Assembly (NCBI GenBank): GCA_000004695.1
Contig: CM000152.2
Span: 352,001 to 416,000 of the forward strand
Source: Dictyostelium discoideum
Lineage: Eukaryota
DNA length: 64,000 nt
Direction: 5' to 3'
Shown: in pieces, positions 43,988 through 50,009 of the stretch
Position numbering within the stretch: the stretch's first letter is position 1
Layout: every line of letters starts with the position of its first letter
Made by a program: the position numbers and the translations under genes
Notes under the pieces: generated by a model
Databases searched by the model: none
What the model was told of the DNA's origin: nothing
The model's input: only the letters and a program-made list of their open reading frames with translations

Positions 43988-45691
<1,704 letters not shown>

Positions 45692-46104
45692 AATATTTTT
45701 TATTTACATATTAAATAAAATAAAAAATATTAAAAAAAAAAAAAAATTAAAAAAAAAAAAAAATTTTTTAAAAAAAAAATTAAAAAAAAAAAAAATTACA
45801 ATCATCAAATTTAATAAAATAATTCTTATTTTTTTAGGTGAACTTAAAATTTTGAAAATCTAAAAATCTTAAAAAAAAAAATCATCACTTTCAAAAAAAA
45901 TCATTTTTTAAAAAAAAAAAAACAATTAATTGTGAAAATAAACCAGATTTAAAAATTTAGAATTTTAAAAATAAAAAAAAATAAAAGAATATAAAAAAAA
46001 AAAAAAATTTAAAATTTTTTTTGTAAAAATATTTAAAATTTCTTATATTAATTTTTTAAATTTAAAAACAATCATAAAAATTTTATATATATATTTAAAT
46101 AAGG

Positions 46105-48297
46105 ATGCATGACACATCATTTACTGTTCATATAAAAGATGAAATTCCAACTTACATCTTTTTTATTGATACTTCAGGGTCAGTTGGAAAAATTGATTTT
46201 GAAATAGTAGTATTATGTTTAAAAAAAATAATTACTGAATTACCAGATAAAGTTAAAATTGAAATTATTGCCTTATCTTCAGATGCTATAATCGTTTTTA
46301 AAAAGCGGCAAAAATAAAATATTTGAAGATATTGAAAACAGTAAGTTCAAAATATCTTGGAATTAATATAAACTATATCAATAAATTTAAAATTAATTTT
46401 TTAACCATTATTTTTTAGATTTACTTTTTGATAGTGGTGCTACTAATTTGGTTGAAGCTTTAAAACTTGGAGAGGTAACCATTACTAATTTTTGTATGAA
46501 TCAAAAAAATTATTTTGTTCTCTTGACTGATGGTGTACCAACTGATGATCCTGAACCAATTATTCAAAAATTAATTTTAAAGGTAATATCAATTATTTAT
46601 ATTAATAAAAAATAATTTTATATATCCAAATTTTTTTTTTTTTTTTTTTTTTTTTTATTTGGGAGTTGATTTTATTGTATTAGCAATTGGAATGGATTCA
46701 GATAAAAAAAAAATTCAAAAATTGTTCCCAGGCCAACATCTATTCATGTTTGATACATTTTCTGGTCTTAGTAAATGTGTGCACACTTTGATTCCATCTC
46801 ATATTTCTATACCATTGACTACCGAAATTTATCCAAAATTTGAAAAAATTCAAAAGTCAAATGAAGCTTTTTATATAATCATTAAATTATCGTCTATCTA
46901 TCCAAAAGATAAATTTCTTGAAAATGAAATAACTTTTATTATCAAGGATAATAAATACCATAGTGGCTATGAAATAAAAGTTGGTCAAGCCACAAGTGAA
47001 GATTGTCCAAGTGAAACAACTGCAAAACTAATTTTTAAATGTCCACAAGAAATGTTACCAACCCATATTGATTTTGAAATCAAAGTAAGGGGATCCACAT
47101 TCCATGGTTATTTCGATTTAAAATACTCTTGGTTCACTGGTGATTTTATTACTAGAAGTCCAATTAATATTTGGGTTGATGGTATGGTTGGTCATGGAAA
47201 ATCAATTTATTATTTAATATTTTTTCATTAAATATTGATTTTGAAGAATTTTTACTTGTAGGAAACAATGCTTTTCATGTCACCACGGAACTTAGATTCC
47301 AAAGTGTTGCTCATATTTTAGCAACCAAAATCGTTAACCAACATGGTCTCTCTCCAAGACTTGTTGACTTTTACAAGAATGTTATCAACTCATTAAAAAT
47401 TGTGTTTGTCGATAAGCCGGGTATGGCAAAGAACCAAGGTAACCTTAGCTATACTCATGCAACAAAGGGCCAATACTCTAACAAACAACACCTAAAAGAT
47501 CTTATCACTGTTGGCGAAGCAAAGTCTTCTCTAGAATGTCATGCTATTCTTTTCGTGATTTCAATTACATTGGTTGATGATGATGTAGATTTTGAATTCA
47601 TAAAAGGTAAAATTCGAGAATCACTTCAAGCAAAAATCAAACCAATTGTTGTGGTCACTCACTGCGACGACTATTCACCAGAAGAAGCTGAAGCAATGAA
47701 AAAGAAACTTGAAGAAGAACTAAAGGTTGATAAAAAGAATTTCTTTTATTTAACTCCATATATTCAAGGTGAGAAACAACGTGATCCAACAAAAGATAGA
47801 ATTGTTTTTCAAATACTCAAATCTATTGTTGAAATTGCCAATAACACTCAAAATCAAAAAATATTAGAATCTTTGGCCAACGATATTAATAACAATAATA
47901 TAGATGAAATTTGTAACTCCTTTGTAAATACTTCTATTAGTTCAACTACCACTACCACTACCACTACTACTAATTCAAATACCTCAAGTGCTAATTCGAC
48001 TCCAAATGGAAATTCCTCTTCACCTTTATTATCCCCAAATGTTGTTGGTTCAGAATCTACTCTTTGGACAATTTGTGTAAAGAATGATTTAACAGATGCA
48101 AAAGTAAATGAAGCCAGATTTAGAGTTTATCCATCAATGACCTTAAAGATTTTGTTTCAAGAGTGTCACAAAAGTTTAAACTTTCTGTTGGTCTTTTTAG
48201 TTTTACAGATGAAAATGGTTATGATCTTTTATTCCCAGATGAATCCATTTTACTCAATGTTTTATCTGATAATATTACCCTTTCAATCTCTGATTAA
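46105..48297 (+). pseudogene. vWA domain + septin/AIG1-like P-loop GTPase gene with two introns and at least three frame disruptions
   Basis: Exon 1 is 46105-46340 with a vWA MIDAS YIFFIDTSGSVGK...IIALSSDAIIVF. A +1 frameshift occurs at about 46290-46315 before ...KNKIFEDIEN and the donor GTAAGT at 46341. Exon 2 is 46410-46582 (LLFDSGATNLVEALKLGEV...LLTDGVPTDDPEPIIQKLILK, donor GTAATA). Exon 3 runs from about 46666 (GVDFIVLAIGMDSDKKKIQKLF...), but no canonical acceptor restores the frame after exon 2. G1 is GMVGHGKS, then a frameshift at about 47200-47215, then INLLFNIFSL. G3 is VFVDKPGM and G4 is VVVTHCDD. A further frameshift lies at about 48165-48180 before FKLSVGLFSFTDENGYDLLFPDESILLNVLSDNITLSISD* (TAA at 48295-48297). 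Confidence 0.55.
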
Positions 48298-48483
48298 AAT
48301 AAATTATAAATATAATAAAATAATTTTTTATGTATATATAATAATAATAACAATAATAATAATAATAATAATAAAAATAATAAAAATAAAAGCAATTAAC
48401 ATTAATTGACGCAATAAAATTTTAACTAATATTTATTAATTAAATTGAAATGTTTTTTTTTTTTTTTTTTTTTAATATTTAAC

Positions 48484-50009
48484 TTATTTAGTTGGTTGGA
48501 TATTTTTAACCATAGTAGCTAAATATTTGAAACGAGCAACACAATCTTTTTTAGATTTAGTACCGAGACGAGCTGCGATTTGATCCCAACGATCTTCAGC
48601 ATTTTTATCGACTTTTTGTAAAGCTTCTTCCAAGAGTTTTTGTTCTTCTGGTGTCCATTCAACAGAGGCAGTGGTAGTGGTAGTTTCTTTTTTAGCGGCT
48701 GGTTTGGCGGTGTCGACAGTTGATGGAGCGGTGGCGGTAGTGGTTGATTCAGTGCCATTTGAAGTGGTACCTACTGGATATTGACCGAGGTCAACTTTTG
48801 AACTGAGTTCAGATTTAATTTCCATATGACCAACTTTGGCTTTTAATTTATCATAATCGGAACCTGATGGAGCAGCTTCTGGTTTTGAGAAAGATTGTTG
48901 TTGAGTTGGTTGTGAGGTTTTAGCTTTGGCGATAACGTCTTTCAAAGAACGAGTTGGAATACAAGATGCAACGGATTCCCAACGTTTGGTAACACCTGGT
49001 GGGAACTTTTGGATGGCTTTAGCCAAGAGATGGAGTTCATCTTCAGTCCATGGTCTCTCTGGTTTAGCTTCTTTCTTATTGTTGAGTAATGCTTTTCTTT
49101 GCTCTTGATAGAGTCTGTCGGCCTCTCTTTGTTTCTCTTGAATTTCGTTCAATTGGACGAGGAAAACTGCTTTCTTATCGGTGACATTATTTTTGGTTTC
49201 CATTTCTTTGGTGAGCTCGCCTAATTGGAGGTTGTCCAAGGTGGCGATGACCAATTCAACATCTTCAATCTTTTGTGGTGGTTGGAATGATTTACAAATG
49301 TCACGGAATTGGATCTTACCCTTCTTTAATAATGCGGTTTGTTCAGCTTTGACACGTTTCTTTTCTTCGGCTTCGTCTTTCTTTCTCTTTTCTTCGGCTT
49401 CGACTCTTTCTTTTTCAGCTTTTTCAGCGGCTTCTTTTTCTTCTTGTGCCTTTCTCTTGGCTTCGTTTTTGGCATTCTTGTGTGCATTCTTTTTGTCGTC
49501 TTCTTCTTTTAATTTCTTTTGAATACGTGGATCTTTTTTGTAGGCGAGATTGGCGAGATCTTGAATACGTGCAGCTTCGATCTTTCTTTGTTTGACACGT
49601 TTCTTTTCATTCTCTCTCTCCATCCAACGTTTCTCTTCACGAGAGTCTGCATTATCTAAATCATGATCATCTTCAAATGTGAAATCTCTCCATGACTTGA
49701 ATGACCACCAAAAGTTATAGAATTTAACAACCTTATCATATGGAGTATCCATATCACCAAGTTTTGGTACTGGTTGAACGTTTGACCAACGAGAGTTACT
49801 ATCAAATACTGGTTCATAGATTTCGAAAAAGTCACCTTCTTCATCGGCTGTTGGAATATCATCATCAAATGGATCGGTTGAATCGTATGCTCTTCTCTTT
49901 TTAATATCACTTAAAATATTATTTGATTTAACTAATGCTTTAAATGCTTCATCATTACCACCTAAATCTTGATTTTTATCTGGATGAACAACTAAAATCA
50001 TTTTTTTAT
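48484..50009 (-). CDS. dnajc2: DnaJ homolog subfamily C member 2 (zuotin/MPP11/ZRF1), exon 2
   Basis: (Y)KKMILVVHPDK (J-domain HPD), then a zuotin homology region FEIYEPVFDSNSRWSNVQPVPKLGDMDTPYDKVVKFYNFWWSFKSWRDFTFED, a charged KR/E helix, and two SANT domains (WTEDELHLLAKAIQKFPPG... and WTPEEQKLLEEALQKVDKNAEDRWDQIAARLGTKSKKDCVARFKYL). It is colinear with human DNAJC2. Confidence 0.9.

Follow-up and report, generated by a model that had tools for sequence, protein, structure and literature searches.

A frame-disrupted vWA-GTPase gene in Dictyostelium discoideum AX4, its intact counterparts, and the relationship of its G domain to IFI44 and IFI44L

The locus analyzed here lies in a 64,000-nucleotide (nt) stretch of the Dictyostelium discoideum AX4 genome (GenBank assembly GCA_000004695.1, contig CM000152.2, positions 352,001 to 416,000 of the forward strand), which we call the window and in whose coordinates all positions are given. 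It is occupied by DDB_G0278177 of the AX4 annotation, a three-exon gene at 46105-48300 (+) that joins a von Willebrand factor A (vWA) domain to a GTPase region, and that an initial annotation, made from the sequence alone, had described as a pseudogene candidate with several frame disruptions. In agreement with that description, six-frame translation of 46090-48330 gives open reading frame (ORF) pieces spread over several frames. The ATG at 46105 opens the vWA domain, including the DTSGS motif of its metal ion-dependent adhesion site (MIDAS), and a TAA stops this frame after 70 codons; the domain then resumes in another frame, passes a clean GT-AG intron, and continues with DSGATNL...LLTDGVPTDD. 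Next, in a third frame, come GVDFIVLAIG..., an extended beta-rich stretch, and the GMVGHGKS of the P-loop with an immediate stop, while HVTTE, DKPG, and THCD of the GTPase are in yet another frame and the final 50 codons in a further one. A restart at M46692 would terminate just past the broken P-loop. The start codon, the MIDAS motifs DTSGS and LLTDGVPTDD, the GTPase motifs G1, G3 (DKPG), and G4 (THCD), and the last codon ending at 48297 are all where the initial annotation had read them.

The disruptions were defined against an intact allele, represented by a genomic contig of 2379 bp that spans the whole gene (L001) and by a transcript contig (L006). L001, which originates from assemblies of public sequencing runs, carries a 536-amino-acid (aa) ORF with 96% identity, and the intact allele as such is present in at least five contigs from several sequencing runs, its DNA being ~98% identical to that of AX4. 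L006 is a spliced transcript with an uninterrupted ORF of 681 aa (P0112) and aligns with L001 in three blocks of 100% identity, indicating that the intact allele is expressed and placing the true introns at window positions 46341-46418 and 46583-46661. Both intron starts in the initial annotation were thus correct, whereas the ends it gave, 46409 and 46665, have to be moved to 46418 and 46661. Bases 1-45 of the transcript align 5' of the ATG and provide a 5' untranslated region at 46060-46104 (+), the extent of which is limited by the contig. The vWA domain begins in exon 1 (46105-46340, +), which encodes its first half, including DTSGS. Intron 1 (46341-46418, +; 78 nt, GT...AG) is intact according to the comparison of L006 with L001 and the window blocks, and its splicing restores the frame. 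The translation and the alignment of L006 place the middle of the vWA domain, with the GATN threonine and the LLTDG aspartate of the MIDAS, in exon 2 (46419-46582, +), and the end of the vWA domain, a beta-sandwich, the GTPase, a low-complexity linker, and a C-terminal domain in exon 3 (46662-48300, +), which ends with the stop TAA at 48298-48300.

Compared with L001, the window has four disabling differences and ~30 substitutions. In exon 1, 5 nt are deleted between 46295 and 46296 (ATCGT/TTTTAAAAAG in the window, ATCGTTTCAATTTTAAAAAG in L001), leading to the premature TAA at 46315-46317. The second lesion affects the ancestral intron 2 (46583-46661, +; ends set by L006), where the acceptor AG at 46660-46661 has become TG (CTAG before GGAGTT in L001, TTTG before GGAGTT in the window, with T at 46660), and the next available AG (46664-46665) yields an out-of-frame junction. 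Third, 10 nt (AACTATTTTA) are lost inside the P-loop GMVGHGKS (G1; 47181-47203, +), right after 47203, where the intact G1 region reads GMVGHGKSTILNLLFN; a TAA follows at 47229-47231. Finally, one T is lost after 48142, near the C-terminus, and the frame shifts within the C-terminal domain. With these four independent lesions, no full-length product can be made in AX4. The three frame disruptions reported in the initial annotation are therefore real, as is its exon 2 to exon 3 junction that cannot be spliced in frame, and only the third frameshift has to be relocated, to ~20-40 bases upstream of the stretch (48160-48185) that had been singled out for re-sequencing. Programmed frameshifting was rejected as an explanation, given four lesions of differing kinds. 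Aside from the acceptor change, the two alleles have diverged far more in intron 2 than in intron 1, which is without differences; the poly-T tract of intron 2 (46630-46657) is 9 T longer in the window, and a 3-nt indel lies nearby.

Dictyostelium has a strongly AT-rich genome that is hard to assemble, and the 1-nt deletion after 48142 sits in a short T run, as might be expected if the lesions had been introduced by misassembly of the AX4 reference, in a gene that is intact in AX4. However, a second, separately deposited chromosome-scale D. discoideum assembly (GCA_054883475.1), whose chromosome differs in length (6,429,748 vs. 6,357,299 in AX4), is identical base for base over 45900-48491. 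In addition, the 5-nt and 10-nt deletions are in non-repetitive sequence, outside homopolymers, another lesion is a splice-acceptor substitution, and the allele also bears 14 derived substitutions with a neutral pattern, as described below. The identity in the second assembly, together with the position of the two longer deletions, leads us to exclude assembly error, to which we assign a negligible probability, and the initial annotation's preference for a decayed gene over a misassembled one is borne out.

Protein searches identified intact orthologues in Dictyostelium cf. discoideum (P0001, 680 aa, 84% identity; P0002, 691 aa, 78% identity), D. dimigraforme (704 aa, 61% identity), and D. purpureum (610 aa, 27% identity). 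The D. cf. discoideum gene is syntenic, with identical flanking genes in matching orientation, and served as the outgroup for polarizing changes. By this comparison, each of the three deletions arose on the AX4 lineage, the outgroup having TTCAA at the site of the 5-nt deletion. Derived substitutions number 14 on the AX4 lineage (12 nonsynonymous and 2 synonymous) and 7 on that of the intact allele (5 nonsynonymous and 2 synonymous), and one of those derived in AX4, G520V, hits a glycine that is invariant among the orthologues. The intact gene in close relatives is under purifying selection, with a ratio of nonsynonymous to synonymous rates (dN/dS, omega) of 0.27 between the intact allele and D. 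cf. discoideum and values <0.4 in every domain. The probability of at least 12 nonsynonymous changes among 14 is 0.0076 at an omega of 0.27 and 0.42 at an omega of 1; the 12:2 ratio thus rejects the former and fits the latter, suggesting, on small counts, that the AX4 copy is drifting as a pseudogene. D. discoideum has a low mutation rate, on which basis the number of changes in AX4 appears to exceed what laboratory culture could plausibly produce.

Overall, the gene has lesions relative to intact syntenic orthologues, and these lesions are reproduced in a second assembly, as is characteristic of a unitary pseudogene. We consider it likely, with a probability of about 0.82, that the AX4 lineage of D. 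discoideum carries, in DDB_G0278177, a unitary pseudogene of a gene conserved in dictyostelids. The term "decaying paralog" used in the initial annotation does not apply, as the locus is a syntenic orthologue of the intact D. cf. discoideum genes and the counterpart of an intact, expressed allele that is ~98% identical, rather than a redundant duplicate. Two considerations weigh against this interpretation as worded. GCA_054883475.1 and AX4 may share one strain lineage, in which case the identity between them does not show how far the allele has spread in nature, and the intact allele could derive from a cryptic sibling lineage, D. discoideum proper being fixed for the pseudogene. When AX4-type frameshifted ORFs were looked up in public assemblies as exact sequences, there was no match, and a look-up via the protein of the upstream neighbor found a single extra assembly.

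The coexistence of null and intact alleles could also be a long-lived, selected polymorphism within D. discoideum, similar to those of immune or allorecognition genes. The two haplotypes differ by ~1.2% in coding sequence, which looks high for conspecific strains, and by more in non-coding sequence; the recurrence of the intact allele across several runs, in at least five contigs, would fit such a polymorphism as well, as would the differences of 4-5.5% in the protein of a paralogue, DDB_G0269482, between assemblies labeled D. discoideum. That range is likewise high for conspecific strains. By contrast, AX4-type ORFs were not found in other runs by look-up, and a simple loss on one lineage accounts for the data equally well, so that we regard the selected polymorphism as unlikely, if still worth considering, and retain the unitary pseudogene as the preferred reading.

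In the AX4 annotation, the dead gene appears as a 501-aa model (P0004) that begins at M46692, so that most of the vWA domain is missing. The model contains two spurious introns, neither of which is spliced in L006. One, of 80 nt (47182-47261, +), excises the P-loop and bridges the 10-nt deletion, joining WVDG to NNAFHV in P0004; the other, of 20 nt (48104-48123, +), bridges the 1-nt deletion, joining TDAK to SLSINDL. The annotation pipeline of the other assembly placed the first bridge differently, resulting in a 506-aa model (P0113), and annotated the vWA part as a gene of its own, of 127 aa. It could be argued from the deposited annotation, and from the similarity of the second pipeline's model, that the 501-aa model is right and that a short protein starting at M46692, without the vWA domain and the P-loop, has a function of its own. 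However, an intron of only 20 nt and another that removes exactly the broken P-loop, placed differently by the two pipelines and, in both cases, unspliced in the transcript of the intact allele, do not favor such a protein, which would also lack G1, the most conserved motif of the family. Moreover, the AX4-derived substitutions, including G520V at the invariant glycine, show no constraint. A functional short protein is therefore very improbable, and the models of both pipelines over DDB_G0278177 are most probably annotation artefacts.

The domain architecture is best described in the intact 681-aa protein, for which an AlphaFold2 model was built with 61 family sequences (mean predicted local distance difference test score, pLDDT, of 84). 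The vWA domain (residues ~18-172; 46156-46772, +, over three exons) was assigned by Pfam VWA (PF00092), with 56.7 bits (E 4.5e-15) on the frame-repaired AX4 product and 70.5 bits (E 2.7e-19) on the intact allele P0112, relative to a cut-off of 23.8 bits, and it was the sole domain recognized in the Pfam scan of the frame-repaired product. It has the Rossmann-like alpha/beta fold and superposes on solved vWA domains. Both the window and the D. discoideum-group orthologues have a complete MIDAS (DTSGS, GATN, LLTDG). The orthologue of D. purpureum (P0006) has lost it (NNPSS for DTSGS) and lacks the DSGATN segment, with all GTPase motifs kept; its vWA domain may have turned metal-independent, or the gene model may be incomplete.

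The vWA domain is followed by an all-beta, Ig-like sandwich (residues ~185-295; 46809-47141, +) of seven strands, modeled with pLDDT >90. Foldseek returned as top matches the ectodomain of ANTXR2 (CMG2; E 1.7e-12) and the Sec23/24-like ArnAB (E 6.7e-12), in ~300 aligned columns with ~15% identity, in both of which, as in the intact protein, a beta-sandwich comes immediately after the vWA domain. ANTXR2, however, is an extracellular receptor with a transmembrane helix, whereas the Dictyostelium protein, as read from its sequence, has no evident signal peptide or membrane span and runs on into a GTPase. The GTPase domain (residues ~300-560; 47154-47926, +) was delimited by profile matches to septins and to IFI44/IFI44L and by its predicted fold, and it has the features of a TRAFAC-class P-loop GTPase, namely G1 (GxxxxGK[ST]), G3 (DxxG), and a G4-like motif, in this order on a GTPase fold. 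G3 is the DKPG at 47411-47422 (+), the D and G of which are invariant or nearly so in the family, and the G4-like motif is the THCD at 47657-47668 (+), which hhalign pairs with THVD of IFI44. As the initial annotation had suspected, the architecture falls outside annotated families, with no curated Pfam family covering the GTPase part.

A Thr/Ser/Asn-rich low-complexity linker, predicted to be disordered (47930-48060, +) and with an in-frame 6-nt length difference at 47945-47950, leads to the C-terminal domain (48065-48297, +). This domain is probably a ubiquitin-like beta-grasp, as suggested by matches to TUG-UBL1 (22.1 bits, cut-off 23.3, in the paralogue P0007) and PB1 (12-18 bits), both of which are sub-threshold. 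With a dN/dS of 0.11, it is under stronger constraint than any other part of the protein.

On the evidence of profile comparisons, the closest known relative of the G domain is that of the vertebrate proteins IFI44 and IFI44L. We compared the family profile with database sequences of orangutan IFI44 (P0216; hhalign probability 98.1%, E 8.5e-14) and bovine IFI44L (P0131; 98.4%, E 4.8e-15), with 213-220 columns for the two proteins. The homology extends over the full length of the G domain, including G1 (GxxGxGKSS(F)xN), a threonine-bearing G2 region, G3 (DxxG), the motif (I)H(A/C)V(I/A)FV, a G4 region with T(H/K)xD, and a C-terminal helix with NY...KD...IL. Reciprocally, a profile of mammalian IFI44/IFI44L matches 69 of 111 family proteins (best 54 bits), while the same profile has no significant match among GTPases of the PDB (best E 0.76). 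The proteins differ outside the G domain: the N-terminus of IFI44/IFI44L is a TLDc domain (PF07534), in place of which the Dictyostelium protein has the vWA domain and the beta-sandwich, along with the probable ubiquitin-like domain at its C-terminus. TLDc had no match in the intact protein, nor was it among the 25 most frequent families listed for each family scan. Dictyostelium is not known to possess an interferon system.

Among solved structures, the family profile matches septins best (41 bits, E 1e-9, from G1 to beyond G4). Together with a sub-threshold match to Pfam Septin (PF00735; 15.9-19.2 bits, cut-off 26.2), and with matches of a few remote family members to Pfam AIG1, this could indicate that the G domain is that of a divergent true septin or a GIMAP/AIG1 GTPase rather than of the IFI44 type. 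However, hmmsearch with the same profile and at equal database size gives IFI44L 58-70 bits and septins 41 bits, no GIMAP is among the best 60 PDB matches, Pfam AIG1 has no match in the intact protein or its orthologues, and the C-terminal NY...R/E...KD...IL motif is common to IFI44. Septins have neither a vWA domain nor a beta-sandwich, and septin-type N- and C-terminal extensions were not seen here. In addition, septins are reportedly absent from Amoebozoa (bioRxiv 10.1101/2024.03.25.586683), which, combined with the scores below the Pfam Septin cut-off, indicates that this protein is not a septin. We therefore find it improbable that the domain is a true septin or a GIMAP/AIG1 GTPase and favor an IFI44-like G domain that shares the septin-like GTPase superfamily with septins. 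The "septin/AIG1-like" label of the initial annotation holds in its first half, at the level of the superfamily, but not in its second, as no significant GIMAP/AIG1 match was obtained and IFI44/IFI44L are closer.

Several points weigh against this view of the protein and should be set beside it. The mammalian IFI44 profile does not directly match the orthologues of DDB_G0278177. It does reach a paralogue, DDB_G0269482 (E 0.0015), as well as more distant members, and the IFI44 link thus holds at the level of the family, the subfamily of DDB_G0278177 being a divergent branch. The C-terminal domain is modeled with low confidence (pLDDT 53-77). Literature searches returned no paper on DDB_G0278177 and nothing relevant joining IFI44 with Dictyostelium. 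Finally, IFI44 and IFI44L, antiviral proteins induced by interferon, contain predicted GTPase regions and restrict respiratory syncytial virus (RSV), and removal of G1 from IFI44 did not eliminate its anti-RSV activity (bioRxiv 10.1101/2020.02.24.963900). With the G1-deleted protein still active, a GTPase-dependent function is unproven even in the closest known relative.

In a search of 1.84 billion representative proteins, the GTPase-region profile gave 105 matches at E <= 1e-3 and 35 at E <= 1e-10. The family is distributed mainly in Amoebozoa, with named members in the dictyostelid genera Dictyostelium, Cavenderia, Heterostelium, Tieghemostelium, Acytostelium, and Synstelium, and in the other amoebozoans Pelomyxa, Nematostelium, and Phalansterium; members are also present in Naegleria and in environmental eukaryote contigs. 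G1, the threonine after HV, the D..G of G3, and the C-terminal NY...D motif are conserved across the family, and the G4 aspartate is not universal in its wider circle. A vWA domain is found in ~40% of the scanned members, and others have a sub-threshold B-box match, double zinc ribbons, RING, or SAM, or a second vWA together with a kinase. Swaps of accessory domains were seen in P0029 (D. citrinum), P0041 (Pelomyxa schiedti), and the environmental or EukProt sequences P0036, P0027, P0043, and P0098; they include a B-box match (20.7 bits, cut-off 24.1) in a long N-terminal region that replaces the vWA domain, a second vWA domain with a protein kinase, and double zinc ribbons at the C-terminus.

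Within D. discoideum, the intact AX4 paralogue DDB_G0269482 (annotated as VWFA domain-containing protein) belongs to the same family and has the same vWA/beta-sandwich/GTPase architecture; it is located on another chromosome, and its G domain is ~23% identical to that of DDB_G0278177. In strain ACTFIR, DDB_G0269482 has a tandem neighbor of the same family (P0111 and P0033, genes 004735 and 004736). DDB_G0269482 and this tandem neighbor are the known D. discoideum paralogues, a list that is incomplete; in the window, tblastn returned the DDB_G0278177 locus alone, with no further copy. A word-indexed protein search with the trimmed family alignment gave a single match, an uncharacterized protein of 227 aa from the frog Ranitomeya variabilis (P0118; E 5.6e-4 to the family profile), which has the motifs GFAGHGKSSFINS, VLTNK, and ENY and may be a short vertebrate protein related to the IFI44-like group. 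The family of vWA proteins with an IFI44-like GTPase is unnamed and uncharacterized.

As for the neighborhood of DDB_G0278177, the upstream gene (43988-45691, -) is an ORF of 552/567 aa with very long Asn/Gln runs, for which no Pfam match is recorded. Over its C-terminal part, it shares 74% identity with the D. cf. discoideum gene at the syntenic position, and its exact AX4 protein was recovered from one other assembly only, probably owing to variable repeat lengths. The downstream gene (48484-50001, -, and beyond) is a DnaJ / ZUO1-like / Myb-domain gene of the ZRF1/MIDA1 type, the protein of which is 94% identical to its D. cf. discoideum orthologue, compared with only ~87% for the vWA-GTPase gene.

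The domains of the ancestral 681-aa protein suggest that it may have acted as a cytosolic, modular GTP-regulated switch or scaffold. A complete MIDAS implies metal-dependent binding to an acidic residue of a partner protein, and the vWA domain and the adjoining beta-sandwich would bind a protein ligand. Septin-superfamily G domains typically dimerize or polymerize via the nucleotide-binding face, and the IFI44-like G domain might couple ligand binding to nucleotide-dependent self-association. Ubiquitin-like and PB1-like tails serve as protein-interaction modules, and the C-terminal domain could recruit partners. With the gene dead, the mechanism would not be operating in AX4. A putative role in cell-autonomous defense is plausible, as suggested by the homology to the IFI44/IFI44L G domain, the shuffling of accessory domains, and the difference between null and intact alleles in near-identical genomes.

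Presence/absence polymorphism is known for plant NLR genes and for animal IRG and GIMAP genes. A broader scenario would see the vWA, beta-sandwich, and IFI44-like GTPases of Amoebozoa and Naegleria as ancient cell-autonomous immune sensors, the G domain of vertebrate IFI44/IFI44L as derived from the same stock, and the null allele of AX4 and the intact allele as a selected presence/absence polymorphism. We consider this scenario rather unlikely; if true, the biochemically obscure IFI44 G domain would become testable in a genetically tractable amoeba.

For work on D. discoideum itself, a 501-aa "hypothetical protein" in the main laboratory-strain reference is most probably an artefact over a dead gene, and knock-out, expression, or proteomic studies of DDB_G0278177 in AX4 and related strains would be conducted in a null background. 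A pseudogene in a laboratory strain is ordinary, and the moderate interest of the locus lies in the family and in the natural pair of null and intact alleles. The intact gene defines a family of about a hundred sequence clusters, mainly in Amoebozoa, the G domain of which is the closest detectable relative of IFI44/IFI44L. The GTPase region of these two proteins has no clear mechanism, nor was a solved structure of it found in the PDB copy searched, and a homologue in a haploid, genetically tractable phagocyte may offer a route to that domain. The occurrence of a natural null and an intact allele in very close genomes would also permit a direct test of the effect of this gene on interactions with bacteria and parasites.

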